From the IMG/VR virus record IMGVR_UViG_3300011008_000007: a stretch of 64,000 bases of DNA. The stretch is one strand, 5' to 3'. Both the position numbers and the translations under genes were made by a program. Shown piece after piece: positions 9,516-41,220 of the stretch (positions within the stretch are counted from its first letter, which is position 1; the number at the start of each line of letters is the position of its first letter). This DNA comes from a virus (taxonomy: Duplodnaviria; Heunggongvirae; Uroviricota; Caudoviricetes). The notes beneath the pieces were generated by a model, which was not told the origin of the DNA, made no database searches, and saw only the letters and a list, made by a program, of their open reading frames with translations.

Positions 9516-9712
9516 CATTTGAGGTAGTTAAGGAAAAGGGCGGACGTTGGTATGTGTGCAAGGCAAATAGTAATCAGCCTATTGCCGGCACATTTAGAAA
9601 AGATAAAAAGGATTGCTTCCATATCGCCGCAGACCTTATGGGTATTACATATAAAGAGTATCTTAAACTACGCAAAAATAATAAACAGAGCAAAAAAAGT
9701 ATTGACAATTAG
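9506..9712 (+). CDS. hypothetical protein
   Basis: ORF with AAAGGAG SD. Confidence 0.4.
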   Translation: MPVTFEVVKEKGGRWYVCKANSNQPIAGTFRKDKKDCFHIAADLMGITYKEYLKLRKNNKQSKKSIDN

Positions 9713-9730
9713 TATAAATTGTGCTATAAT
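9702..9730 (+). promoter_or_regulatory. sigma-A type promoter TTGACA-N17-TGcTATAAT
   Basis: Hexamers at 9702-9707 and 9725-9730. Confidence 0.55.
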
Positions 9731-9737
9731 TTAGTAA

Positions 9738-9860
9738 ATGATTTACTAATGCGGTGGCGGAATAGGTAGACGCAGTACACAAATGGCAATAACGTGGCGG
9801 GTTGAACAAACGCCTGTTCAATATCGGATGACCGCTCCCTTGTGAGGTGCAAATCCTCAC
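9738..9860 (+). ncRNA. candidate tRNA-like small RNA (about 120 nt)
   Basis: Starts about 8 nt after the -10. GCGGTGG...CACCCGC acceptor-like pairing, D-arm-like GCGGAATAGGTAGACGC, T-arm-like TGAGG-TGCAAAT-CCTCA. The central region holds an extra hairpin (TTGAACA/TGTTCAA), so about 70 nt lie between the D and T arms. Confidence 0.25.
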
Positions 9861-9886
9861 CCGCATTATGAGAAATAGGTGATTCT

Positions 9887-10429
9887 ATGAAATATTCAGA
9901 TATTCCGCAGTTTACACGCAGCGGAGCATATCAGGTAAATGTGCCACTTAATTATGTAGAGGAAGAAATAAATCATTTTATAAATGATAATGGGTTACAA
10001 TTAAACCCTGATTTTCAGCGCGGTCACGTTTGGACGAAAAAGCAACAAATTGCATTTGTAGAATTTTTATTGCGTGGCGGTAAATCTTCCAAAATAATCT
10101 ATTTTAACTGTCCTTCGTGGTTCAACGATAATAATGAAAGTGATTATAATGATTTTGTCGTTGTGGATGGTTTACAACGACTGACTGCGGTTCTTGCATT
10201 TGTTCACAATGAAATCCCTGTTTTCAATGCTTATTACAAGGATTATGAGGGTGGTATTCCAATTGACATAAATTTAATATTTAATGTTAATGACCTTAAA
10301 ACAAAAGCAGAAGTGTTAAAGTGGTATATTGAGATTAATTCTGGTGGAACACCTCATACAGATAGCGAGATAGAAAAGGTTAAGTCACTATTAAAAATAG
10401 AAGAATCAAAAGGAAACAAAAATGAGTAA
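9887..10429 (+). CDS. DUF262/ParB-like nuclease-domain protein
   Basis: FQRGHVW...VVDGLQRLTAV resembles the DGQQR motif of DUF262 (GmrSD N-terminal domain family). Confidence 0.45.
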   Translation: MKYSDIPQFTRSGAYQVNVPLNYVEEEINHFINDNGLQLNPDFQRGHVWTKKQQIAFVEFLLRGGKSSKIIYFNCPSWFNDNNESDYNDFVVVDGLQRLTAVLAFVHNEIPVFNAYYKDYEGGIPIDINLIFNVNDLKTKAEVLKWYIEINSGGTPHTDSEIEKVKSLLKIEESKGNKNE

Positions 10430-10922
10430 AAATATAGCAAGAAAAATATTGGAATTAGAACGACTGTGGCAGGAAACCGACAGTAACATAATAGGTGAAA
10501 CTGTTGAGTTGGAACTATTCGAGAAGGGTTATACGACACCTAATGCACAAATTAACAAACTAATGGAAATTACGAACTCTACTAAGCACGCTGTTTATGC
10601 TTGGCGCAATAATAGCAGGGGAAACGTAAAGATTCCATTTTTAAAATTATGTATGATTGCAGACAAATTAAACATTGATATTGAAAAAATAATTATCGGA
10701 GGAAACAATATGTATAAGACAAGATTTATTGTAAAGAGAACGGTTGGAAATGTTGATGAGGTTATTAAGTTTTTTGACGCAGAGGATAAGGATGCTGCCA
10801 TTGCATATGCAAAGAAAATATCTGATAAAAACGTGAACGGTATTATCGTATGCGCTAAAGGCTCCTATGACGACAGCGGCAAGGCTAAGGATAACAAAGA
10901 GGAAATCTTTGAGATTTACTAA
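10422..10922 (+). CDS. XRE-family helix-turn-helix protein
   Basis: Segment INKLMEITNSTKHAVYAWRNNSRGNVKIPFLKLCMIADKLNIDIEKII looks like a Cro/CI-type HTH. Confidence 0.45.
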   Translation: MSKNIARKILELERLWQETDSNIIGETVELELFEKGYTTPNAQINKLMEITNSTKHAVYAWRNNSRGNVKIPFLKLCMIADKLNIDIEKIIIGGNNMYKTRFIVKRTVGNVDEVIKFFDAEDKDAAIAYAKKISDKNVNGIIVCAKGSYDDSGKAKDNKEEIFEIY

Positions 10923-11104
10923 GCGCCGCGCCGCCGCTTCCCCCCCTTATAGGTTTTCGAGTTGTAACCAATATGTGTGCGGAAATGTTTTTATTTTAGT
11001 TATGTATATTGAATATTTCCGTACACAAAATCTTTAAACCAAAGAGGGAAAATACGCAGCATTTTGGGCGCAAAATATTTATAAAAGTCAATAGGTGCTG
11101 CGAC

Positions 11105-11312
11105 AATTATTATATAAGTGTTATAAGGTAAATATATTTATGTAAGTAAAGTTTGCTTATATAATAATTGTTTCTTATATAAGGAACTAATATTAATATA
11201 AGTTACTTATATAAGAAACTAACATAATATAAGTTACTTATATACACCACTAATATTATATATATAACTTATATTAGCTTATATTATATATACGCTAATA
11301 TAAGGAACTTTT
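11105..11312. repeat. AT-rich iteron-like direct repeats (CTTATATAAGRAACT family)
   Basis: At least five imperfect copies of TTATATAAG(G/A)AACT / ACTTATAT in a 435 nt ORF-free region. Confidence 0.5.
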
Positions 11313-11357
11313 AATAGCAATAAACCTAACAAAAAAACTATTGGGAGAGATATAAAA

Positions 11358-11780
11358 ATGAAACCTATGGTGTATCAACCGGAAAGAAAAATTGAAGTGT
11401 TGCACGATGGAGTGTATGAGGGTTATCACTATGCCATATTATCATACGGGACACATCCTTGTGCTTATGTAGAAATCCCGAAAGACCATCCGTATTACAA
11501 ATACAACACAGACAAAATTGAAGATATTATATCTTGCCATTGGGGAATTACCTATTGTCACAACTTTAAATCAAACCATAAAGACGCAAGCGCTCATATC
11601 TATGAAGTGTTCGGAAAGAGTAAGGTGATTGGTTGGGATTATGCGCATTGCTATGATTATTCCGGCACATATATAAAACGTCCTTCTGTATATTTTGATT
11701 CTTTAAAGAAGTGGACTACTGAGGAAATCTACGAGGAAGTTATTGAGGTAATCAAACAACTAAAGGGAGCGATAGAATAA
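11358..11780 (+). CDS. hypothetical protein
   Basis: ORF with SD. Confidence 0.45.
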   Translation: MKPMVYQPERKIEVLHDGVYEGYHYAILSYGTHPCAYVEIPKDHPYYKYNTDKIEDIISCHWGITYCHNFKSNHKDASAHIYEVFGKSKVIGWDYAHCYDYSGTYIKRPSVYFDSLKKWTTEEIYEEVIEVIKQLKGAIE

Positions 11781-12217
11781 TGGAAGATATGTTTTTCTTC
11801 TCCGAAAGATTTGAGCCAAAATCTAATTTAAAAAACCTAACCAAAGAAGAACTAAAGAATCGTTTGCGTTATTTTAAAAAGGTTGAAGATGACCATTCCA
11901 AACGTTGGCTTTGGTATAAGTTCCGTTTTAAGGATATTGATTTTGGAATTGTCGAATATTCCGATGAAAGAGGCAGAACACTTGTTAGAAGAATGACCTG
12001 GAATTGGGGAGTGGACAATGAAATAAGACCTTATCACAAAGGCTATAAATCTCCGCCAAAGAAATATCATTGCTTTAACGGCAAAAAGATTGACGATATT
12101 ATCCGAGCTATTCAGTTAGGGATTTTAATTATTGACGAATCTTCTAAGGGTTATTGCTTACAAGAGAACACAGAATGCTTTAGAACATATAGGGCGGCAA
12201 GAAAAGCTCTCACATAG
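11780..12217 (+). CDS. hypothetical protein
   Basis: ORF with SD. Confidence 0.45.
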   Translation: MEDMFFFSERFEPKSNLKNLTKEELKNRLRYFKKVEDDHSKRWLWYKFRFKDIDFGIVEYSDERGRTLVRRMTWNWGVDNEIRPYHKGYKSPPKKYHCFNGKKIDDIIRAIQLGILIIDESSKGYCLQENTECFRTYRAARKALT

Positions 12218-12352
12218 CTCTAATAAGCCGAGAATTAAATCCTGTGACAGTTTTATTAACAAGTAATATAAACTCTTATCTGCAACAAATAATGCGATAC
12301 AAGGCGAATCTAAGAGAGAAATATTAAATTTATAAGCCTAACAAAAAAACTA

Positions 12353-12381
12353 TTGACAAATATAATAAATTGTGTTATAAT
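12353..12381 (+). promoter_or_regulatory. promoter with A-rich block + TTGACA-N17-TGtTATAAT
   Basis: Hexamers 12353-12358 and 12376-12381. Confidence 0.55.
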
Positions 12382-12418
12382 GCAAATATAGTAAATGAGT
12401 TACTAAGGAGTGACGATT

Positions 12419-13345
12419 ATGGCACAGGTTGCACGGGTAAAATCTAAAGCAAAGATTATTGAACTGTTTCCGCAAGTTGTTGAGGAAACCAAAAAGGTAA
12501 GTTCAGCGCCTAATAATAAGAAAAAGGGAACTAAGTCGGAAGTGTTTGCGTTCAGAAGCATTGAGGACATTAAGAATGTTATCAATTACTTCTACAATCG
12601 CGGCGAGTGGATTCATTATCTTTATATTACTCTTGGTTTGAATCTTGTAAGACGTGTAGGGGATATGCTCACGCTGACTTGGGAAAACTTCTTTGACCCA
12701 CGCACAGGAAATTTCCGAGATGATATTCTTGAAATTTGCGAGGATAAGACAGACAAGTTTGCTAACCCGCATATCAATTCAGCTTGCAGAGATGCTATTA
12801 CCAATTATCTTGCTAAGGTTGGTTATGACCCTGCGGTTGATGATTACAAAATGCCTGTATTCTATCAGTTTACCGGCACGGCAAAAGGCAGAGTTCTTAG
12901 TCAGAGCGGCGAACTCAAAGCAATGAAGAGAGCTGCTGAATATCTTAACCTCACTTATAATATCGGAACTCATAGTCTGCGTAAAACATTTGGTAAGTGG
13001 AGCAGAATACTTCACCCATATGATAATGACAGTATGGAGCTTCTTAGAGCCATATACAACCATAGTGATACTAAAACTACAAGTCGTTATATTGGTTTGA
13101 CTAAAGAGAAGATTGATGATTATTATGACGATATGGGTTCATTCTATACCGATTATGTTGTAGGAGATAAGGAGTTTAAGCATAGCGCGGTTTCTCCGTT
13201 GGTTAGCATTGAGCGCAACGATATTATGGAAGTAGTTAAAATGGCTTATCAGCTCGGAAAAGAGTGTTCAGAGGAAACGGATTCCGAGGTTCATCTTGAT
13301 AATATGACCTCAATGCTTTCGATGATAGATGACCTTGCAAAGTAA
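12419..13345 (+). CDS. tyrosine recombinase/integrase family protein
   Basis: C-terminal catalytic signature GTHSLRKTFG ... YNHSDTKTTSRYIG (HxxR...Y of tyrosine recombinases). Confidence 0.6.
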   Translation: MAQVARVKSKAKIIELFPQVVEETKKVSSAPNNKKKGTKSEVFAFRSIEDIKNVINYFYNRGEWIHYLYITLGLNLVRRVGDMLTLTWENFFDPRTGNFRDDILEICEDKTDKFANPHINSACRDAITNYLAKVGYDPAVDDYKMPVFYQFTGTAKGRVLSQSGELKAMKRAAEYLNLTYNIGTHSLRKTFGKWSRILHPYDNDSMELLRAIYNHSDTKTTSRYIGLTKEKIDDYYDDMGSFYTDYVVGDKEFKHSAVSPLVSIERNDIMEVVKMAYQLGKECSEETDSEVHLDNMTSMLSMIDDLAK

Positions 13346-15078: not shown

Positions 15079-15471
15079 ATGTATAACAAGAACAATTCAA
15101 TAAGACCGAAGTTTGGAGAAATATGGATGTGTAACCTTTATGCAGAAGGTAGCATTCAGAGGGGATATAGACCGGTACTCATTATATCTAACAACCAAAA
15201 TAATACATACTCTCCGACAATCAATGTAATTCCATTGACAACTAAAATGAATAAAAAGAAGTTGCCTATTCACGTTGAGTTGTGGAACTATCAAGAGTAT
15301 GGATTAAAGGCTCCGAGTACAATATTGGTTGAACAAATCACAACGATTCCTCTTGAAAATTTGACTAAGAGAATCGGCAAGATAGACGACAGTTATACTT
15401 TAGGCGCAATTTATCAAGCGATGAGTATTCAATTCCCCATATTGAGTGTTATTAATATGCACATAGCATAA
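15079..15471 (+). CDS. PemK/MazF-like endoribonuclease toxin family protein
   Basis: RPKFGEIWMCNL...GYRPVLIISNN...INVIPLTTK matches the MazF/PemK fold pattern (GDI..dF, RPalVvs, vvvaPiTs). Confidence 0.55.
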   Translation: MYNKNNSIRPKFGEIWMCNLYAEGSIQRGYRPVLIISNNQNNTYSPTINVIPLTTKMNKKKLPIHVELWNYQEYGLKAPSTILVEQITTIPLENLTKRIGKIDDSYTLGAIYQAMSIQFPILSVINMHIA

Positions 15472-15543: not shown

Positions 15544-16545
15544 ATGCCAAAAATTTCTACCAAAGAGTTAATAGACGAATATTTTGACAGCATTAAGTAT
15601 GATGTAGCGAAGAATACTCTTCCTAAAGTTAAGCCAACTGTTGACCGTCCCGAGCTCTATACTTATGAGATAAAGATTGGAAAGCAGCTTGTCGAAATGA
15701 ACGCAGATGAAATATTGGATATGTTGTTTTATATAGAAACTCATTCAACAACATTTTCAGCCAATACTTCTATTACAATGTCAAGCGTATATGCTCGTAT
15801 ATCTCAGTATCGGAATATCGTCAATTATTACATTGACCACTATGAGGTAATAAAGAATCCTTTTAACGACAAAAAATTAAAAGGAAAAAATGTATCTGAT
15901 TATATGAACAGTAAGGTCAAGGGGTTATCGGTAGAGGATGTCGAGAGAGCTATCGAGGCTATTCAAAACGCCTACATAGATTATCGGCGCGATTATTATG
16001 AATGTGTTGTTCGATTGTTTTATGAGGGTGTTGCAACTCCACAAGAATTAATTGATATAAAGAAAGAACATATTAATTTTGAAACCAAAGAAATATCAAT
16101 AAATAATAAGGTAATCAGGTTATCAGAAAGATGCTTTGAGTTATTTATTAGGCAACACAATGCAACTCAGGTTGAGGCTTGGCGAGGCTATTATGACGCA
16201 ATTCCTTATCGCGGCAGTTTTATAAAATTCTATGTGAGGTCGCAAAGTGTTCCAGAGTTTGACGATTTGGATGTTGGACAGATAACTTCAAAGATAAGCA
16301 AAATAATAACCAAATGTATTAGACAGGATTTACACATTGATATTAAATCTTATAGAGAGATATATGGACTTGGTTTTTATAATTTCTTTGTAAAGAAAGT
16401 TGGAAATAAAGACAAGGCTGATGAGATTATTAATTCTGTCCGAAATGCAGAATATGTTGAAATTATTATGCAAGCTGCAAAAGAATATGGTGTATCAGCA
16501 ACAAACTCTTCGCAAGTAAAAGAGATATTGCGTAAATATATATAA
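15544..16545 (+). CDS. hypothetical protein
   Basis: ORF with SD. Confidence 0.5.
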   Translation: MPKISTKELIDEYFDSIKYDVAKNTLPKVKPTVDRPELYTYEIKIGKQLVEMNADEILDMLFYIETHSTTFSANTSITMSSVYARISQYRNIVNYYIDHYEVIKNPFNDKKLKGKNVSDYMNSKVKGLSVEDVERAIEAIQNAYIDYRRDYYECVVRLFYEGVATPQELIDIKKEHINFETKEISINNKVIRLSERCFELFIRQHNATQVEAWRGYYDAIPYRGSFIKFYVRSQSVPEFDDLDVGQITSKISKIITKCIRQDLHIDIKSYREIYGLGFYNFFVKKVGNKDKADEIINSVRNAEYVEIIMQAAKEYGVSATNSSQVKEILRKYI

Positions 16546-17762: not shown

Positions 17763-18560
17763 ATGGCTATTATTGGTTCTATTATAGGAGACATAGCGGG
17801 TTCAGTAATTGAATTTGGAAAACCAAAAGACTATAATCCAAAAACTGCCAAGCTGTTTACAGACGATAATGAATTTACAGACGATACTGTTTTATCTATT
17901 GCTACAAAATATGCAATTGAAAATGCTCGTTATGGAGTTCCCGATTATGCCGGAGCATATCACGAATTTGGATTAAAATACCCATATTGCGGATATGGCG
18001 AAATGTTTATGGATTGGTTGGAATCCGACAATCCTCTCCCTTATGGAAGTTACGGAAACGGTTCGGCAATGAGGGTATCATATATTGCAGACTATTATTC
18101 TGGATTTGGAGAGATTAAGAGGCAGGCAGAACGTTCAGCAGAATGTACCCATAACCACGAAGAGGGAATTAAAGGCGCTATGGTTGCAGCGACTTGTATT
18201 TGGGTTGCTAAAAATGGCACAAGAAAAGATGACGTATTGAGATTTGGGAAGAGGTTTTATCCAAAATCTGAATACCCATATAGTTGCGAATATTCTTTAG
18301 ATGAACTTAGAGAGTTCTATAAGTGGGATGCGACTTGTCAAGGTTCTGTTCCTTTGGCTATTAGATGTATATATGAAGCAGACAATTATGAGGAATTTTT
18401 AAGAAATGTATTCAGCGTTGATTGCGATGCCGATACCGTAGCCTGTATTGGCGGCGGAATCGCAGAAGAATTGTTTGATGGAACGGGGTTCGACAACAAG
18501 GAAATACTTGAAAAGTATTTGCCGGAAGAATTATATAAACAAATATCAATACTTTTATAA
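17763..18560 (+). CDS. ADP-ribosylglycohydrolase (DraG/ARH family)
   Basis: N-terminal GSIIGDIAGSVIEF (GxxxGDAxG...E) and GNGSAMR, both hallmarks of ADP-ribosylglycohydrolases. Confidence 0.6.
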   Translation: MAIIGSIIGDIAGSVIEFGKPKDYNPKTAKLFTDDNEFTDDTVLSIATKYAIENARYGVPDYAGAYHEFGLKYPYCGYGEMFMDWLESDNPLPYGSYGNGSAMRVSYIADYYSGFGEIKRQAERSAECTHNHEEGIKGAMVAATCIWVAKNGTRKDDVLRFGKRFYPKSEYPYSCEYSLDELREFYKWDATCQGSVPLAIRCIYEADNYEEFLRNVFSVDCDADTVACIGGGIAEELFDGTGFDNKEILEKYLPEELYKQISILL

Positions 18561-19893: not shown

Positions 19894-20928
19894 ATGGGAG
19901 ATTTTCAGAAACTAATAGATTTTGGAAACCTATATAATTCCTGTCAAGTCTCTCTTAAAGGCAAAGGAAAGAAACAAAGTGCTATAAAATTTAATATAGA
20001 TGCCTTGGAAAATATTTTGCTTATGAAGCAAGAATTAATCCAACGTACATATCAAATTGGTAAGTACAATGAATTTGTTGTTTCTGAGCCGAAACGAAGA
20101 ATAATTAAATCAGGTACTTTTCGTGATAAGGTTCTTCAACATTGCCTATGCGACTACGTTCTATTACCCAAATTAAAAGATATTTTTATTTTGGATAATT
20201 ACGCTGGTCAAATAGGCAAAGGAACTTTATTTGGATTAAATCGTTTATCAGAAAATCTAAGTAATTTCTATGGCGAATTTGGCTATAGTGGATATATTTT
20301 AAAGTGTGATATTACTAAATTCTTTTATAGTATTAATCACACCTTAATGAAAATCTGTGTAAATAAATATTTTAAAGACCCTGATATACGTTGGGTTTGT
20401 GGATTATTTATAGATAGTACAGATGGGGATGGACTTCCATTGGGCAACCAAGTAAGCCAAGTTTTTGGTTTAATGTATCTCAATGGATTAGACCACTACA
20501 TTACAGAAGAATTAGGAATTAAATACTATGGACGGTATATGGACGATTTTTATTTAATATCGGAAAGTAAAGAAAAATTAAAAAATTGTTTACGGAAAAT
20601 AACGGAATTATTAGAAAAGATAAAGCTAACATTAAATAATAAAACAGAAATTGTACCTATAACAAAAGGAATTAGATTTTTAGGTTTTCATACATATTTA
20701 ACCGAAGAAGGAAAAGTAATAAGAAAATTAACTGGAGATAATAAACGCCAGATAAAAAAGAGATTGCGAAAATATGCCAATTTCGTAAAACTTGGCAAAA
20801 TGTCAAGAAAAGAATTTGATGAAAAATATATTGCTTGGAAGAATCATGCTTCACACGGCAATTGTTATAGATTGATTTGTAGTATGGATGAATTTGTAGA
20901 ATCTTTGTTTAATCAAAAAGGAGAGTAA
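19894..20928 (+). CDS. DGR reverse transcriptase
   Basis: RT motifs including YGRYMDDFYLI (YxDD); position downstream of TR. Confidence 0.8.
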   Translation: MGDFQKLIDFGNLYNSCQVSLKGKGKKQSAIKFNIDALENILLMKQELIQRTYQIGKYNEFVVSEPKRRIIKSGTFRDKVLQHCLCDYVLLPKLKDIFILDNYAGQIGKGTLFGLNRLSENLSNFYGEFGYSGYILKCDITKFFYSINHTLMKICVNKYFKDPDIRWVCGLFIDSTDGDGLPLGNQVSQVFGLMYLNGLDHYITEELGIKYYGRYMDDFYLISESKEKLKNCLRKITELLEKIKLTLNNKTEIVPITKGIRFLGFHTYLTEEGKVIRKLTGDNKRQIKKRLRKYANFVKLGKMSRKEFDEKYIAWKNHASHGNCYRLICSMDEFVESLFNQKGE

Positions 20929-20933
20929 TATTA

Positions 20934-21998
20934 ATGAGAAAATACATTGACGGTAAAAACCGCTTTGTTGAAGTTTTTAATCCCAAAACGGGGTTTTATA
21001 TGAGAACGGGTATTATTGACAAAGAGGGGAAAGATACAGGTGTTGACCCCTTTATGCGCTCTTATCCTGCATTAATTGATATTGGAATTATGGAGCGCTG
21101 CGTGTGTGCCCACAAGTGTAAAGTAGATTGTTATCAAAAGGCTTGTGACCGAAATGGCGAAAATATGAGCCTTGAAGATTACACTTGGATTATGGAACAG
21201 AGTAAAGGTAAGCTCCAGCAGGTGGCTTTGGGCGGCGCTGGCGACCCCGATACCCACGAAAACTTTGAGGATATTTTAAAAGTAACACGAGAATATGGTA
21301 TTGTTCCCAATTTTACAAGTTCAGGTATTACTTTCACAAAAGAAAAGGCTAAGTTGTGTAATAAATATTGCGGAGCGGTAGCAATCAGTTGGCATAATGA
21401 GGATTATACATTTAATTCAATCCAAATGCTATTGGAAGCGGGAGTTAAAACAAATATTCATTATGTTCTTTCCTCTAAATCTATTGATGACGCAATAGAT
21501 AGATTAAAGAATAATGGCTTCCCAAAGGGTATTAATGCAATTGTATTTCTTCTTTATAAACCTATTGGACTCGGCAAAATTGAGAATATATTAACTGCTA
21601 ATAATCCAAAGCTCAAAGAATTTTTTGATTTAATAGATAACGGGGATTTTAATTTTAAAATTGGATTCGATTCTTGTACTTGCCCTGGAATTATTAATAA
21701 TACTCAGAACATAAATCTCGACAGTATAGATTACTGTGAGGGCGGACGTTTTTCAATGTATATATCTGCCGATATGAACGCAATGCCTTGTTCTTTTGGA
21801 AATCAAAATCCAAAGTGGTATGTAAACCTTAGAGAGAATACCATTCAAGAGGCTTGGGATGGAGCTATATTTGAGAGATTTAGAAACTCATTAAGATATT
21901 CTTGCCCGAATTGTTTAAAGCGTGCAGGTTGCGCAGGCGGCTGTCCAATTTGCAGAGATATTGTTTTGTGTAACAAGGAGTGTAAGGAACTAATATGA
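20934..21998 (+). CDS. putative radical-SAM-like / SPASM-type Cys-rich protein (tentative)
   Basis: N-terminal Cys cluster CVCAHKCKVDC, GGAGDP (GGE-like) motif, C-terminal CPNCLKRAGCAGGCPIC cluster. Confidence 0.3.
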   Translation: MRKYIDGKNRFVEVFNPKTGFYMRTGIIDKEGKDTGVDPFMRSYPALIDIGIMERCVCAHKCKVDCYQKACDRNGENMSLEDYTWIMEQSKGKLQQVALGGAGDPDTHENFEDILKVTREYGIVPNFTSSGITFTKEKAKLCNKYCGAVAISWHNEDYTFNSIQMLLEAGVKTNIHYVLSSKSIDDAIDRLKNNGFPKGINAIVFLLYKPIGLGKIENILTANNPKLKEFFDLIDNGDFNFKIGFDSCTCPGIINNTQNINLDSIDYCEGGRFSMYISADMNAMPCSFGNQNPKWYVNLRENTIQEAWDGAIFERFRNSLRYSCPNCLKRAGCAGGCPICRDIVLCNKECKELI

Positions 21999-24876: not shown

Positions 24877-25701
24877 ATGATTAAGATAAATGGCGAAGAA
24901 ATTATAATCGAAAGATTTTATGACGGTACACCGAGAATTAAAGTTAATGAGAAATACGGCGAATTAAGAAGCGTAACTCTTGACTGGATTTATGAGAATG
25001 ATGCTGAACTTGTAAGTCTTATAATGATTAACGGTCATTTAAGAGAACACGGTGTTGAAAAGATATTCTTAAATATGCCTTATTTACCCAATGCAAGAAT
25101 GGACAGAACAGAAAATGAAGAGGAAGTTTTTACACTTAAATATTTCTGTAAAGTGATTAATGGTATGAGTTTTGATGGGATTACGGTTTATGACGCTCAT
25201 TCGAGGGTCGGAGTTGCCTTATTGGACAAGGTTGTTGATATAAACCCAAAGAATGATGTTATCATAGTATTGATTAAGATTGGTGCCTTAGACGAATATT
25301 TAAATATTATTGATGATAATTTCATTTTGTATTTTCCTGACGATGGCGCCGCAAAAAGATATTCTAAAATGTTTCCTAATATCCCATTTGCTTATGGAGA
25401 TAAGGATAGGGATTGGAAAACAGGTAAGATAATTGATACCAAAGTCAAAGACAACGGTATTGACCTTGCAGGCAAGAACGTCCTCATTATTGATGATATA
25501 TGCAGTAAGGGCGGCACATTCTATTATAGTTCCAAGAAACTCAAAGAACTTGGCGTACATAAAATTAATCTCTTCGCCACGCATTGCGAAAATATTGTAT
25601 TAGAGGGTCAAATTTTAGATAGTGGGCTGATTGAAAAATTATATACGGTTGACACTATTTTTACAAAAACACATCCAAAAATTGAGGTGATTCCATATTG
25701 A
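24877..25701 (+). CDS. ribose-phosphate pyrophosphokinase (Prs)-like protein (possible ADPR-pyrophosphate synthetase Adps)
   Basis: MPYLPNARMDRT (Prs IPYxGYARQDR motif) and PRPP-binding loop NVLIIDDICSKGGT; 274 aa, shorter than canonical Prs. Confidence 0.6.
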   Translation: MIKINGEEIIIERFYDGTPRIKVNEKYGELRSVTLDWIYENDAELVSLIMINGHLREHGVEKIFLNMPYLPNARMDRTENEEEVFTLKYFCKVINGMSFDGITVYDAHSRVGVALLDKVVDINPKNDVIIVLIKIGALDEYLNIIDDNFILYFPDDGAAKRYSKMFPNIPFAYGDKDRDWKTGKIIDTKVKDNGIDLAGKNVLIIDDICSKGGTFYYSSKKLKELGVHKINLFATHCENIVLEGQILDSGLIEKLYTVDTIFTKTHPKIEVIPY

Positions 25702-27272
25702 AACCGATAGTTCCTACGCTTTTAATTGATTTTTATAAAGGTGTTCACGCTGAAATGCTCCCTAAAAAGATTGAAAAATCCGTTTCTTATTTTACTCCGA
25801 GAATGAGCAGGGTAAAACGTTGGAAATATGTAGTTTTCTTTGGTTTACAGGGATTTATCAAAGAGTATCTTAGAGATTATTTTAATGAGCATTTCTTTAT
25901 AAGAGGTACCAATGAGGTTGTAAATGAGTATAAAAGAGTAATGGACAATACTCTTGGCGAGGGTATCTATGGAATTGAAAAAATTGAGAAACTGCATAAG
26001 CTCGGCTATTTGCCAATTGAAGTAGTTGCACTTCCCGAAGGCACAAGAGTTCCTATGCACGTTCCTATGTTTGGAATAACTAATACACATCCTGACTTTG
26101 CTTGGCTTCCGCAGGCTCTTGAAAGTTTAATTTCAGCAGAGGTTTGGCATCCTATGGTCGCGGCTACGGTTGGAGATACATATCGCCAAATTGTAAACAA
26201 GTATTATAAAGAAACTTGCGACGACAACATTTCGAGAGCGCGAGCTTTGGGTAGTTTTGACTTCCGTGGAGATGAAGGACTTGAAAACGCAACAAAAACA
26301 GGCGCAGCTTGGTTGTTGTCTTTCTTGAATACGGCTACTGTACCGGCAATTCCATACCTTGAAGAATACTATAATTGTGATTGTACAAAAGAGCCTGTTG
26401 GTTTTGGTTCTCCATCTACTGAGCATTCTGTTATGTGTAGCAACTATGCCGTAGACGGTGATGAGACTACTTTGCTTCGCAGATTATTGACCGAAATTTA
26501 CCCAAATACTTCTTTCTCGGCAGTTCTTGATAGTTACGACTACTGGAACGTAATTGACAATATTCTTCCTCAGTTAAAACCTGAGATTATGTCACATAAC
26601 GGCTGTATGCTTATGCGCGGTGATAGCGGAGATTGCGTTGATGTTGTAACCAAAACAGTATTCAAGCTATGGGATATTTTTGGTGGCACAACGAACAGTA
26701 AGGGATATAAAGTTCTCGACCCGCACGTTAAAGCTATTTATGGAGATAGCATTACTGTTCAGCGCTGCGAGCAGGTTTATCAAATTTTAAAAGATAACGG
26801 ATTTGCCGCGTCAAACGTGGCGCTTGGAGTTGGTTCTTTCTCAATGCAATGTATTGAAGAGGAAGAGGAAATCGGAGTTTTAATTCCTGGCGGAACAGAG
26901 ATATACAGACAGGGCAACACCGTTTCTACAATTGAGGGAGATACAAAATTCATTTGTACAATGCCTATTTTAAAGCCATTCACAAGAGACACATTTTCTA
27001 TGGCTATTAAAGCAACATATTGTGAAGTTGATGGTAAGCCCGTTCCCATTTTCAAAAATCCAAAAGACGGCGGATTTAAGAAATCTCAAAAAGGCTGTTG
27101 TGTTGTAGAAGAGGATGCATTTGGCGGTTTACAATATAAAGATAATTACACTTGGGAAGAGGCACAGAATAACAAAAATCAACTTCTCAAAACAGTTTTT
27201 ATAGACGGAACAATGGAAAAAGAACATTCTCTTTCGGAGATTAGAAATAGACTTCACAAAGGTGATTTTTAA
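25698..27272 (+). CDS. NAMPT-family phosphoribosyltransferase (NadV/Namat-like)
   Basis: Several blocks co-linear with nicotinamide phosphoribosyltransferase: FYKGVHAEMLP, VVFFGLQGFIKEYL, LPIEVVALPEGTRVP, FDFRGDEG, IYGDSIT. Confidence 0.7.
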   Translation: MKPIVPTLLIDFYKGVHAEMLPKKIEKSVSYFTPRMSRVKRWKYVVFFGLQGFIKEYLRDYFNEHFFIRGTNEVVNEYKRVMDNTLGEGIYGIEKIEKLHKLGYLPIEVVALPEGTRVPMHVPMFGITNTHPDFAWLPQALESLISAEVWHPMVAATVGDTYRQIVNKYYKETCDDNISRARALGSFDFRGDEGLENATKTGAAWLLSFLNTATVPAIPYLEEYYNCDCTKEPVGFGSPSTEHSVMCSNYAVDGDETTLLRRLLTEIYPNTSFSAVLDSYDYWNVIDNILPQLKPEIMSHNGCMLMRGDSGDCVDVVTKTVFKLWDIFGGTTNSKGYKVLDPHVKAIYGDSITVQRCEQVYQILKDNGFAASNVALGVGSFSMQCIEEEEEIGVLIPGGTEIYRQGNTVSTIEGDTKFICTMPILKPFTRDTFSMAIKATYCEVDGKPVPIFKNPKDGGFKKSQKGCCVVEEDAFGGLQYKDNYTWEEAQNNKNQLLKTVFIDGTMEKEHSLSEIRNRLHKGDF

Positions 27273-27742
27273 TGATTAGGATTGTTGATGGCGATTTATT
27301 AGAAAGTAAAGCTAACATTATTGCACATCAAGTTAATTGTCAAGGAGTAATGGGTTCGGGTGTGGCAAAAGCCATAAAAAAGAATTATCCGTATGCTTTT
27401 AAATGTTATAAAGAATACATAAAAGAAAATTCTCCCGAATTGGTATTTGGATTTTGTCAGCTTGTACCCATTTATCTTCCGTCTGGAAAACCAAAATATA
27501 TAGCAAATTTATTTGGACAGTTTGATTATGGATATAACGGAGATTGCTACACAAACATAGACAAGCTCCGCACGGCTTTTCTTGCATTAAATGAATTTGC
27601 AGAAGAAGAAAACCTAACCGTTGCTATGCCATATAAAATTGGCTGTGTTCGTGGCGGCGCAAACTGGAACGAGGTTTTAAAAATGATTTGCAATATTTTT
27701 CAAAACGTTTACGTCGAAATTAGGCGTTTAGATAGAGGTTAA
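27272..27742 (+). CDS. macro domain protein (ADP-ribose binding/hydrolase)
   Basis: IIAHQVNCQGVMGSGVAKAI matches the Macro-domain Gly-rich ADP-ribose pocket motif. Confidence 0.55.
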   Translation: MIRIVDGDLLESKANIIAHQVNCQGVMGSGVAKAIKKNYPYAFKCYKEYIKENSPELVFGFCQLVPIYLPSGKPKYIANLFGQFDYGYNGDCYTNIDKLRTAFLALNEFAEEENLTVAMPYKIGCVRGGANWNEVLKMICNIFQNVYVEIRRLDRG

Positions 27743-27744
27743 TT

Positions 27745-28503
27745 ATGTATGATATGATTACGAAAATAAAAGAAGATTGCGTTAAATGGATTAGCTCGTG
27801 GTTTAATAAGAATGGTTGGCAATGTAATGCAATCGTTGGTATTTCTGGTGGAATTGATTCAAGTGTAGTTGCCGCTCTTTGTGTAGAAGCTCTCGGCAAA
27901 GAACGTGTTATTGGTGTATTGATGCCGAATGGAGTTCAGCCAGATATTGATTATGCTTATAAGCTCATCAATCATTTAGGAATCGAGAGTATAGAAATCA
28001 ACATTAAAGATTCCGTAGATAATATCATAAAACAGATAGACAATGCTTCGGAGCAGACATTGATTAATTTGCCGGCACGAATTAGAATGTCAACATTATA
28101 TGCGGTTTCTCAAAGTAATAACGGCAGGGTAGCAAACACTTGTAATTTATCAGAAGATTATATTGGTTACTCAACAAGATATGGAGATAGTGTTGGTGAT
28201 TTTAGCCCATTGGCTCACTTTACTAAATCGGAAGTATTGTTGATTGCAGATAAATTGGGATTGCCTAAAGAACTAATTGAAAAGGTGCCGACAGATGGAT
28301 TGAGCGGCAAAACCGATGAAGAGAATTTTGGATTTACATACGAACAATTGGATAAGGAGATTAGAGGTTGTTATAATTATCCAAAGACCAATTTAGAGAG
28401 AGAAATCACAAATAAGATTGATGAACTACACAAGAAAAATGAGTTTAAATTAAAGCCTATGGATTGTTATGATTTCCACGGATTTAAACATTATACAAGC
28501 TAA
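27745..28503 (+). CDS. nadE: NH3-dependent NAD+ synthetase
   Basis: PP-loop GISGGIDSSVV and overall NadE-like length and order. Confidence 0.7.
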   Translation: MYDMITKIKEDCVKWISSWFNKNGWQCNAIVGISGGIDSSVVAALCVEALGKERVIGVLMPNGVQPDIDYAYKLINHLGIESIEINIKDSVDNIIKQIDNASEQTLINLPARIRMSTLYAVSQSNNGRVANTCNLSEDYIGYSTRYGDSVGDFSPLAHFTKSEVLLIADKLGLPKELIEKVPTDGLSGKTDEENFGFTYEQLDKEIRGCYNYPKTNLEREITNKIDELHKKNEFKLKPMDCYDFHGFKHYTS

Positions 28504-33261: not shown

Positions 33262-33729
33262 GGGGCAGTTCTGGTATTCGACAGGCTGTTGAAAGAATAA
33301 ACTTCGCAGGTAAGCTACAACCTTAATGTGCAAACTTAAAAATAAACGACAAAACTGTTGTAACACTTCATCCTGCTCTTGTAGCAACACTCTCACAGAG
33401 GGCTGCCGCATAAGCAAATTTGGATGCCAAAACAATACTCCTGCTATTCGGTAAGTATTTGAGGTTTAGGATAGAGTAGCAAAATGGTTTCTTGCTTCCA
33501 CAAAAAGTAAGTGGTGGATTTGGTTTGACGAAACTTGTCATCCCCATTCGGAATATCACGAGACCGTCACCGAATTAAAATATAAGGAGTATTATTATGG
33601 AATGCGATTAATTTAATAAAACTATGAGAACGGTAGAGGCTCGGACGGCAAAAAGAATACCTATTGCGTAAAAAGAGTTTATTTAAGTATGTAGTTTGGA
33701 CACGAGTTCGATTCTCGTCTGCTCCACCA
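33262..33729 (+). ncRNA. ssrA: tmRNA (SsrA)
   Basis: 5' GGGGCAGTTCTGGTATTCGACAGG (tmRNA consensus GGGGCUGAUUCUGGAUUCGACGGG). 3' GGACACGAGTTCGATTCTCGTCTGCTCCACCA (T-arm + acceptor pairing with the 5' end + CCA). Candidate tag ORF 33330-33413 ending ...QRAAA-stop; length 468 nt is long. Confidence 0.6.
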
Positions 33730-40839: not shown

Positions 40840-40967
40840 AGGGGTATAGCTCAATTGGTAGAGCGCTGTAATTTTTCAGTATCTTGCAAAAGATACATAC
40901 AGCAAACCATTACATAAAATAATGCTTAGGGAGCCAGATGTTACAGGTTCGAGTCCTGTTGCCCCTC
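40840..40967 (+). ncRNA. atypical tRNA-like gene 1 (128 nt; Ala-like 5' half; internal Cys-like TTGCAAA hairpin)
   Basis: Canonical acceptor AGGGGTA/TGCCCCT, D-arm AGCTCAATTGGTAGAGC and T-arm ACAGGTTCGAGTCCTGT, but about 77 nt between them. Contains hairpin GTATCTTGCAAAAGATAC + ACAGCAAACC. Confidence 0.45.
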
Positions 40968-40975
40968 GCAAATAT

Positions 40976-41097
40976 GCCGGTGTAGCCCAATGGTAGAGCA
41001 GCGGACGCATAATGTGTCTTGATTTAGAAAACACTTGCAGCAATTAAGCGGTCAAGAAAACCGTGTGTTGGAGGTTCGATTCCTCTCCGCCGGCACC
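40976..41097 (+). ncRNA. atypical tRNA-like gene 2 (122 nt; Thr-like ends)
   Basis: Acceptor GCCGGTG/CGCCGGC-A-CCA, D-arm TAGCCCAATGGTAGAGC, T-arm GGAGGTTCGATTCCTCT. Central insert with outer helix CGCATAAT/ATTAAGCG, hairpin GTGTCTTGATTTAGAAAACAC + GCAGCAATT. Confidence 0.45.
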
Positions 41098-41100
41098 AAA

Positions 41101-41220
41101 TGGGAGCGTAGCTCAGTTGGTAGAGTAATAGTAATGAAAAGTTGTCTTGTAAAGACAATAACAGCAATCTATTAAGTTCCAAACTATGTGTCGCAAGTTC
41201 GATTCTTGTCGCTCCCTCCA
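41101..41220 (+). ncRNA. atypical tRNA-like gene 3 (120 nt). Equals tRNA-Gly(TCC) if a 43 nt insert between positions 31/32 is removed
   Basis: Acceptor GGGAGCG/CGCTCCC-T-CCA. With the insert AATGAAAAG-TTGTCTTGTAAAGACAA-TAACAGCAAT-CTATTAA excised, anticodon arm ATAGT-GTTCCAA-ACTAT. The insert itself holds a Tyr-like hairpin TTGTC-TTGTAAA-GACAA. Confidence 0.5.

Follow-up and report, generated by a model that had tools for sequence, protein, structure and literature searches.

A conserved palindromic site lattice between early genes of a large uncultured phage: a composite cis element and tentative operator or insulator

The 64,000-nucleotide stretch of phage DNA analysed here (IMG/VR record IMGVR_UViG_3300011008_000007; hereafter the window) carries a gap of 435 nt at positions 10923-11357, and the question raised by this locus is what a gap so filled with repeats may be for. 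A first-pass annotation, made from the letters alone, had seen in it a region free of open reading frames (ORFs), with iteron-like direct repeats, next to a helix-turn-helix (HTH)/DUF262 gene pair, and had suggested a replication origin, a partition site or a regulatory hub. Judged from its sequence and that of its relatives, the gap is a genuine composite cis element under purifying selection, made up of a hairpin block, a lattice of palindromes and the scar of a promoter. Our answer, a tentative one held with clear reserve, is that a protein binds the palindrome array cooperatively and that the array serves as an operator or insulator between early transcription units.

The palindrome lattice and its conservation

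The coordinates and sequences given for 10923-11357 are confirmed. The gap is ORF-free, with 7-14 stop codons in each of its six reading frames and no open stretch longer than 45 codons. It is the window's largest non-tRNA intergenic gap; the ORF caller gave it as 320 nt because of a spurious overlapping 56-aa ORF.

Within the gap lies a lattice of TATAAG-N3-CTTATA sites (11103..11315, no strand assigned; 16% GC), in which about ten 15-bp palindromes of the form 6-3-6 have conserved half-sites and a variable 3-nt centre. The site centres lie at 11154, 11172, 11185, 11204, 11217, 11235, 11248 and 11266, with spacings of 18, 13, 19, 13, 18, 13 and 18 bp, that is, an alternation of 13 and 18 bp with a 31-bp period corresponding to about three helical turns; weaker outlying sites are found at 11118, 11129 and 11306. 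The autocorrelation of the array peaks at lags 31, 13 and 18, and TRF reports a 31-nt period with 2.4-3.7 copies. Neighbouring sites whose centres are 13 bp apart have in common the decamer CTTATATAAG, which is its own reverse complement, and each 31-bp unit therefore holds four alternately oriented half-sites, an unusual geometry for three turns of the helix.

Seven sites with at most two mismatches occur within 241 nt, against 0.37 +/- 0.62 expected from dinucleotide shuffles, and seven were reached in 0 of 2000 shuffles. The heptamers CTTATAT/ATATAAG occur 34 times in the window, a number that no shuffle reached, and 12 of these 34 fall within 11112-11304. The earlier description of iteron-like direct repeats thus holds as regards a dense repeat cluster far above chance, but the units are palindromic and not simple direct iterons. 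No other 200-bp duplex in the 64 kb is as unstable as that of positions 11104-11303 (-0.989 versus a mean of -1.256 kcal/mol/bp, 4.7 standard deviations), and the array as single-stranded DNA folds far better than its shuffles (z = -6.3), which indicates a strong cruciform potential.

Relatives were reached via the flanking proteins, and their loci are labelled L. The closest is L185, an ENA contig with flanking proteins about 70% identical to those of the window, in which the gap aligns end to end. At the nucleotide level the window and L185 are 75%, 71% and 64% identical in the genes for the HTH protein, p140 and p145, compared with 80% in the array, 95% and 89% in the hairpin block (10948-10989 and 11012-11054, respectively) and about 70% in the hairpin interiors (first loop and second hairpin). 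That the array (80%) and the hairpin block (89-95%) are more conserved than the flanking genes (64-75%) points, at the level of sequence comparison, to purifying selection. The lattice spacing in L185, 25-18-13-19-13-18-13-18, matches the series of the window, with differences in which sites are perfect and which degenerate; lattice positions and motif are kept while single sites turn over, which is the signature of selection acting on binding sites as a set.

The same motif and spacings are found in three further lineages, with intervals of 13, 18 and 30-31 seen again in the L106 family, L160, L163 and L168. They persist even in lineages in which the neighbouring proteins are only about 50% identical. 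In the L106 family (L106, L107, L109-L112, L160 and L173; HTH protein about 50% identical to that of the window) a core of about 190 nt is nearly invariant, even where the flanks are unrelated, and consists of an inverted repeat with invariant 17-nt arms followed by TATATAAG(A/T)(G/A)(T/A)C sites spaced by 13, 18 and 30. The loop of this inverted repeat (about 25 nt) is hypervariable with indels, next to sequence that is about 90% identical (L106 11432-11490; L107, L110, L160, L173). In L163 there are five or six ATATAAG-(AGT/ACT)-CTTAT sites, spaced by 31, 18, 13 and 30; L168 has two sites 30 bp apart, L172 one or two palindromes and L161 one; an ORF begins just past the palindromes of L172, and L161 retains only the conserved start of that ORF. 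At the syntenic position the array is absent in six relatives (L162, L165, L166, L169, L170 and L171).

The gap opens, directly after the stop codon of the HTH gene, with the 25-mer GCGCCGCGCCGCCGCTTCCCCCCCT (10923..10947, + strand), which at 22/25 G+C is the most GC-rich of the 64 kb and includes the sole C run of six or more in the window, a C7 run at 10940-10946. It had been called the only strongly GC-rich stretch, which is slightly overstated, the next most GC-rich 25-mers having 20/25 and 19/25. Its identity to L185 is only 56%, with GC-richness and C run retained in L185 and in L108, a short contig in which the first 57 nt past the HTH stop are conserved. On the same strand follow the first hairpin block (10948..11054), with a 17-bp stem (arms 10974-10990 and 11011-11027) around a variable 20-nt loop and nested in outer pairings 10944-10948/11044-11048 and 10952-10956/11036-11040, and the second hairpin (11055..11102; arms 11055-11064 and 11093-11102), which combines conserved stem ends with a variable interior.

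An 18-mer from the array gave single chance matches only in an exact-pattern scan of IMG/VR, the conserved 18-mer TTATAGGTTTTCGAGTTG gave chance matches only in the JGI metagenomes, and a metagenome scan with the HTH alignment found nothing. A two-palindrome pattern scan returned 47 loci, none of them related to the phage, with analogous arrays in some unrelated phages. Such unrelated IMG/VR phages carry TATAAG-ATT-CTTATA palindrome arrays or CTTATAAG half-sites (L142 238-560, L158 10830-11160, L144 3297-3400, L114 4145-4290 and L157 236-430), lying just upstream of genes read by eye as TerS/TerL in L142 and L158, at the end of a T7-like terminase gene in L144, and in some cases near contig ends; poly-C runs lie near the arrays of L144 and L128. 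These arrays may represent a convergent motif class or a common host factor.

Promoters, neighbouring proteins and the favoured reading

The window contains 12 near-consensus sigma-A early promoters with a common upstream block of about 25 nt, TTTATAAACCTAaCAAAAAAACTA, followed by TTGACA (family starts at 630, 964, 9702, 12353, 14906, 18578, 30939, 39037, 54781 and 61730). The promoter at 9702..9747 (+ strand) has the consensus TTGACA-17-TATAAT, drives the DUF262-HTH operon and directs transcription toward the gap; its leader palindrome, AGTAAATGATTTACT, is at 9733-9747. At the other end of the gap a promoter stub (11316..11357, + strand) holds at 11316-11343 a copy of the upstream block and the TTG of the -35 element, which abut the ribosome-binding site (RBS) GGGAGAG of the next gene; there is no -10, as the first-pass annotation had noticed. 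The stub is also present, more decayed, in L185 and L186. In the L106 family, L168 and L173 the array is followed, 80-230 bp further 3', by a perfect TTGACA-17-TGnTATAAT promoter for LPD29, and L167 has a degenerate copy in the same place; LPD29 is absent from the window and L185, where only the stub is kept. From the sequence, a deletion evidently fused the -35 region to the RBS of p140. Neither p140 (11358-11780, + strand; phrog_2164) nor p145 (11780-12217, + strand), to which no function was assigned, has a recognisable promoter of its own, and with the promoter of this lineage cut down to a stub they therefore probably rely on read-through across the array.

We would accordingly describe the gap as a composite cis-acting spacer between two early transcription units. 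The hairpin block at 10948-11102, at the 3' end of the DUF262-HTH operon, would most likely end, process or stabilise its transcript. A sequence-specific dimeric DNA-binding protein would fill the lattice sites cooperatively and form one extended nucleoprotein complex. By acting as a roadblock or insulator against read-through from the upstream promoter, this complex could control what is transcribed across the boundary; alternatively, the complex may be an upstream operator of the next promoter, which in relatives drives LPD29.

Which protein would bind the array is a separate matter. The nearest candidate is the 166-aa product of 10422..10922 (+ strand), modelled by AlphaFold (pLDDT 88) with an N-terminal Cro/CI (XRE)-type HTH domain of about 95 aa and a C-terminal domain of about 70 aa. 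Foldseek matches of the HTH domain were C.AhdI, C.BclI, P22 c2 and lambda cI (TMt 0.6-0.76, root-mean-square deviation about 2.1 A, with weak E-values), and the C-terminal domain (beta-beta-alpha-beta-beta) gave no fold match. Palindromes of the form 6-3-6 suit HTH dimers, as in P22 c2-type operators, and a Cro/CI-type regulator gene lies 0-2 kb upstream of the array in the 8 lineages that have both inside the fetched locus. A second 6-3-6 palindrome, AGTAAA-N3-TTTACT (AGTAAAT-N-A-N-TTACT), is found in the window at 1001-1015, 9733-9747 and 12390-12404, just past the -10 of the promoters at 964, 9702 and 12353, of which the second drives the operon of the HTH protein itself and the third the tyrosine recombinase. 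This leader palindrome also occurs in L106, L107, L162, L165, L166, L171, L173 and others. Of the 13 loci that carry the HTH gene, 12 have it; L168, L169 and L170, in which an HTH gene was not found, are without it. L167 has it with no HTH gene found, in a locus that starts inside the DUF262 gene, so that the HTH gene may be situated beyond the fetched stretch. Across 19 homologs, those of array-less genomes included, the recognition helix does not vary. Because of this pattern of co-occurrence, the invariant helix in array-less genomes and the array of L168 without an HTH gene, the HTH protein more likely regulates the leader palindromes, and AGTAAA-N3-TTTACT is likely, on sequence grounds, an autoregulated early-promoter operator set. 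The binder of the array is no less likely to be another regulator of the phage, or a protein of the host, than the adjacent HTH protein; the window also encodes a second HTH-like protein (102-569).

The DUF262 (GmrSD_N-domain) protein of 180 aa (9887..10429, + strand; Pfam PF03235, E=3.5e-15) has an 8-nt gene overlap with the HTH gene, and it was from this pair that an origin or partition site had been argued. The argument is weak, since L185 keeps the array with no DUF262 gene at that position and the HTH protein co-occurs with the other palindrome.

Some further features of this operon were observed. An internal strong RBS (GGAGG) and in-frame ATG at 10700-10712 precede the C-terminal domain of about 70 aa, and several homologs are HTH-only proteins of 91-97 aa (in L166, read by eye, the C-terminal domain is apparently a separate ORF), so ORF 10422-10922 may give two products. 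The leader at 9748-9870, between the 9702 promoter and the DUF262 gene, has 43% GC and resembles a tRNA-like structure (acceptor-like stem GCGGGU.../...ACCCGC, T-arm-like GAGGUGCAAAUCCUCAC), with no Rfam or ARAGORN call and a fold z-score of about 0. A SAM-I riboswitch (RF00162, 56-59 bits) lies 3' of the HTH gene in L163 (8900-8986) and L165 (10588-10674), in both cases preceding a small ORF; it is located about 50 nt past the HTH stop in the former and after one intervening small ORF in the latter. None is found there in the window.

The reading of the array as an operator or insulator draws on the patchy presence of the element and its copy number of 1 to about 10, which are easier to square with an evolvable regulatory element than with an essential origin or terminus; L161 and L172, with one or two palindromes, count as operator-like single copies. 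That no replication, partition or packaging gene was detected in this 64-kb early/accessory region also counts in its favour. In this sense the suggestion of a regulatory hub fits, on the evidence of the sequence, a conserved palindromic multi-site array between early units, by an HTH gene and, in relatives, upstream of a strong promoter.

Several points weigh against it. Ten sites in 200 bp far exceed the need of an ordinary operator, and the low duplex stability and cruciform potential of the array (z = -6.3) would equally suit an origin. Elsewhere in the window TATAAG-N3-CTTATA has 6 scattered one-mismatch matches against about 5 expected, with no regulon to be seen. Searches for promoters inside the arrays of any lineage gave only weak AT-rich matches (best 8-9/12), and operator-over-promoter repression is not visible. 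The adjacent HTH protein co-occurs with a palindrome other than that of the array, L168 has an array and no HTH gene in the fetched locus, and no gene family tracks the array across the 15 loci, for which locus coverage is limited.

Origin, genome-level site, RNA element or idle spacer

Another explanation, which we consider unlikely, is that of a replication origin, in which the palindromes would be initiator-binding iterons and the AT-rich array a DNA-unwinding element, with the flanking hairpins giving priming or loading structures and nearby early transcription activating it. In lactococcal phages, origins proven by experiment include non-coding AT-rich stretches that carry direct and inverted repeats. 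The present locus is a unique one with many copies of one motif; it is the least stable 200-bp duplex of the 64 kb (11104-11303, 4.7 standard deviations below the mean), has strong hairpin and cruciform potential and is conserved above its coding flanks. However, a scan of the larger ORFs of the 64 kb detected no initiator, helicase loader, helicase, primase or polymerase, and the neighbours are a Cro/CI-type HTH protein and proteins without a fold match. The DnaA box TTATCCACA was not found in 10923-11357 with at most one mismatch, and the palindromes are arranged on a 31-bp lattice and not as direct iterons of about 20 bp. The syntenic site carries no array in L162, L165, L166, L169, L170 and L171, and the sites are down to one or two in L161, L172 and L168. 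The GC skew is positive, with a monotonic cumulative skew across the window and no turn at 11 kb, which is weak evidence because all genes are co-oriented and only 64 of about 162 kb (40%) is seen. Apart from the iteron-like appearance and the low stability of the duplex, nothing was found in favour of the first-pass proposal of an origin or partition site; no replication or partition gene was detected, and the gap has no DnaA box.

A decidedly unlikely explanation is another genome-level cis site coated by a filament-forming protein, which could be a centromere or segrosome (on the model of ParR/parC, SopB/sopC or the EBNA1 repeat family), a packaging or terminus region (T7 end repeats, cosB/pac) or a DNA-entry pause like the injection stop signal (iss) of T5. 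Half-sites every 9 bp or so with a 31-bp super-period resemble centromere arrays, and the PemK toxin and two tyrosine-recombinase-like genes just downstream could suit a plasmid-like lifestyle. No ParA, ParM or TubZ NTPase and no ParB/ParR homolog was detected among the scanned ORFs, however; with regard to a partition centromere there is no adjacent par operon NTPase among the scanned window proteins, and the DUF262 adjacency is not conserved. For packaging or an end, one may point to the TATAAG-ATT-CTTATA arrays of unrelated IMG/VR phages by TerS/TerL (L142 and L158, by eye) or at a T7-like terminase end (L144), and to the short contigs L108 and L186, which break either side of the hairpin-array stretch. 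Against this, assembly can be expected to break contigs artefactually at a repeat of 16% GC, arrays are mid-contig in long contigs and absent from six relatives, and the same ORF scan detected no terminase, packaging or structural gene; early-type genes and consensus promoters on both sides mean that this is not an obvious genome end. An entry signal finds a parallel in the conserved untranslated repeat and palindrome regions inside the pre-early region of T5 (bioRxiv 10.1101/866236), but the hallmark of the T5 iss, organised DnaA boxes, is absent from the gap. It is tempting to speculate, though we hold it to be very doubtful, that the 31-bp lattice is the assembly site of a filament-forming protein and not an ordinary operator or an origin, a genome-level signal in the manner of a T5-iss-like entry pause or checkpoint or of a centromere- or segrosome-like tether; the signal would then stand amid the counter-defence early region of a clade of about 160-kb phages, probably of gut or rumen Clostridia.

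It is improbable, too, that the element acts at the RNA level, with the gap transcribed from the upstream promoter and its hairpins and AU-rich palindromes serving as RNase III or RNase Y sites, as a 3'-UTR-derived small RNA or as a stability or attenuation element that would uncouple upstream and downstream genes. The gap does lie downstream of a consensus promoter with no intrinsic terminator between (a scan of 10000-12500 found none, the hairpin loops being at least 20 nt and a U tract absent), and the hairpin block is its most conserved part, with fold z-scores of -2.75 to -3.5 in the window (z = -3.5 for 10915-11110) and of -3.6 in L185, where the architecture is the same. There are hairpins ahead of the array in L172 (z = -5.7) and the L106 family (z = -2.5) as well; the arrays of L163 and L168, on the other hand, have no significant structure upstream (z about 0). 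Rfam gave no match with E<=1 in 9600-12500 and none at gathering score in the gaps of L185 and L106. No covariation was found in the hairpin stems, which are invariant while the loops diverge, and this points to sequence-specific recognition rather than mere pairing. In the array itself conservation rests on the half-site hexamers and their spacing with variable 3-nt centres, and a 6-bp A-U stem with a triloop would be unstable as RNA.

Least probable of all is a stretch with no dedicated function, in which AT-rich repeats made by slippage and a recombination scar would mark a mosaic junction, the result of shuffled promoter cassettes of the kind that PeSL cassettes mediate in T4-type phages (PMC2839356, PMC4122927). 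In its favour, the promoter stub is clearly the scar of a deletion, relatives vary in the genes that they carry on either side of the element, and the array is variable in copy number and missing in many. Against it, array and hairpin block exceed the flanking coding DNA in conservation, the lattice outlasts the turnover of its sites, motif and spacings persist where neighbouring proteins are about 50% identical, and 435 nt of idle spacer is unlikely in a gene-packed genome.

Some more specific assignments were tried and rejected. A dif/Xer-like reading of 11121-11148, noticed by eye, failed as that stretch is not conserved in L185. A tyrosine-recombinase site (dif, lox or attP) does not agree with palindrome centres of 3 bp or 0 bp in place of a 6-8-bp spacer between 11-13-bp arms; the recombinase occurs in array-less relatives, and arrays occur in L109-L112, which are without the recombinase. 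A telomere resolvase is not matched by recombinases of 311-333 aa and the lack of a long perfect palindrome, the best having 39-nt arms at 85%. DUF262 and HTH as a split ParB were set aside, the DUF262 gene being absent beside the array in L185 and present in the array-less L171.

The phage, its genes and known systems

The window has a GC content of about 35%, with predicted genes almost all on the + strand and at least 16 tRNA genes plus a tmRNA. An identical copy of the 166-aa HTH protein occurs on a 162,032-bp contig and the contigs of relatives measure 156-171 kb; the window therefore belongs to a phage genome of about 160 kb. The host is probably a member of the Clostridia: labels of metagenome-assembled genomes (MAGs) point to Clostridia or Ruminococcus, which is weak evidence because phage contigs may be mis-binned into MAGs. 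No DNA-level similarity of the window to cultured phages was found, tblastn of the HTH protein against phages gave no match, and this clade of about 160-kb phages is uncultured. Downstream of the gap, p140 has a predicted structure with pLDDT 89 for which a fold search against the PDB gave no informative match, and the sequences of p140 and p145 had no match among PDB sequences.

The gene order of the clade is SprT-like, DUF262, HTH, array (where present), LPD29, tyrosine recombinase, PemK and a second recombinase-like gene. The tyrosine recombinase of 311 aa (12410-13345, + strand) has a perfect sigma-A promoter and leader palindrome from 12353 and is kept across the clade. It forms a trio with a PemK/MazF-type toxin (15079-15471) and a second recombinase-like protein of 333 aa (15544-16545), each gene apparently with its own strong promoter; the trio is kept in nearly all relatives of the clade. 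Apart from it, the window gives no sign of lysogeny. In L109-L112 the module SprT-like, HTH, array, LPD29 and PemK is found on contigs with Tn916-type Xis/integrase, MarR and Fe-ADH genes, which suggests integrated or temperate relatives, or mosaic exchange with integrative elements.

Early and accessory genes of the 64 kb include those for SprT-like, PemK toxin, ADP-ribosylglycohydrolase, NAMPT, PRPP-synthetase-like and NAD synthase proteins, and further for a reverse transcriptase, a SPASM-domain protein, Thg1, RNA 2'-phosphotransferase, an NAD-dependent ligase and methyltransferases. The NAD-related cluster (PRPP-synthetase-like, NAMPT, NAD synthase) and the ADP-ribosylglycohydrolase, at 17763-18560 and 24877-28503, fit counter-defence against NAD-depleting or ADP-ribosylating host immunity. 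The reverse transcriptase (RVT_1, phrog_1423) is directly followed by the SPASM-domain protein at 19894-21998, a pair that is kept in L185 (16844-18580). A full-length tmRNA gene missed by ARAGORN lies at 33262-33729 inside the tRNA cluster (Rfam RF00023, 76 bits, E=2e-27). Three tRNA-model matches of unusual length, 116-128 nt (40840-40967, 40976-41095 and 41102-41217), also uncalled by ARAGORN, may have introns or insertions inside.

If the array is a cooperative binding platform, it would be a compact, sequence-defined cis element in a large phage clade without a cultured member, whose early region is packed with apparent counter-defence genes (the NAD-salvage cluster, SprT-like, LPD29 and PemK), and knowledge of its binder would reveal how these phages divide up or time their early transcription; if it is merely a local operator or insulator, the finding is an ordinary one. 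In either case two candidate operator systems can now be told apart, the TATAAG-N3-CTTATA array and the AGTAAA-N3-TTTACT promoter-leader palindromes. Elements of this kind have been described before; no description exists of this member, of its lattice geometry or of its clade.

Among known systems, the PeSL cassettes of T4-type phages likewise combine repeated early-promoter cassettes (12 here, with the 25-nt block) and stem-loops between small early genes, and the truncated promoter copy at 11316-11346 here marks a shuffling or deletion junction; PeSLs, however, are promoter-terminator units of about 50-70 bp without a 200-bp lattice of palindromic sites (PMC2839356, PMC4122927). The untranslated repeat regions of T5 with the injection stop signal are alike in sitting among small early genes of a large phage and in exceeding the neighbouring ORFs in conservation, with function unproven; they are 0.2-1.2 kb long with eight organised DnaA boxes within inverted repeats (bioRxiv 10.1101/866236), whereas the gap has no DnaA boxes and its element is dispensable in several relatives. 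Centromere arrays (R1/pSK41 ParR-parC, the 43-bp repeats of F SopB-sopC, the 30-bp family of Epstein-Barr virus oriP) are likewise built of tandem units of about 30-43 bp with a palindromic dimer site, and the closely spaced half-sites here could similarly support a continuous protein filament; they differ in that no partition NTPase or ParB/ParR homolog was identified in the window, and that DUF262, a ParB-like N-terminal domain, is adjacent in some lineages only. Iteron-type origins (lambda ori, SPP1 oriL, lactococcal ori/Per) have in common with the gap repeated motifs, AT-rich meltable DNA, inverted repeats and a unique locus, but here no initiator gene was detected in 64 kb, the gap has no DnaA boxes, the array is not in all relatives, and palindromes on a 31-bp lattice stand in place of direct iterons of about 20 bp.

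Closest to the operator or insulator that we favour are the Cro/CI (XRE) operator clusters, such as those of P22 c2, lambda OR/OL and the C-protein operators of restriction-modification systems. These hold 2-3 sites and overlap or abut a promoter, as opposed to about ten sites over 200 bp at alternating 13/18-bp spacing that overlap no recognisable promoter, next to an HTH protein that likely has another operator. They are nevertheless similar in having palindromic sites of 14-18 bp with AAG...CTT-type half-sites, several of them adjacent and cooperatively bound, as would be expected here, near a regulator gene and between early units; and the protein encoded beside the array is predicted, from its structural model, to have the same fold.

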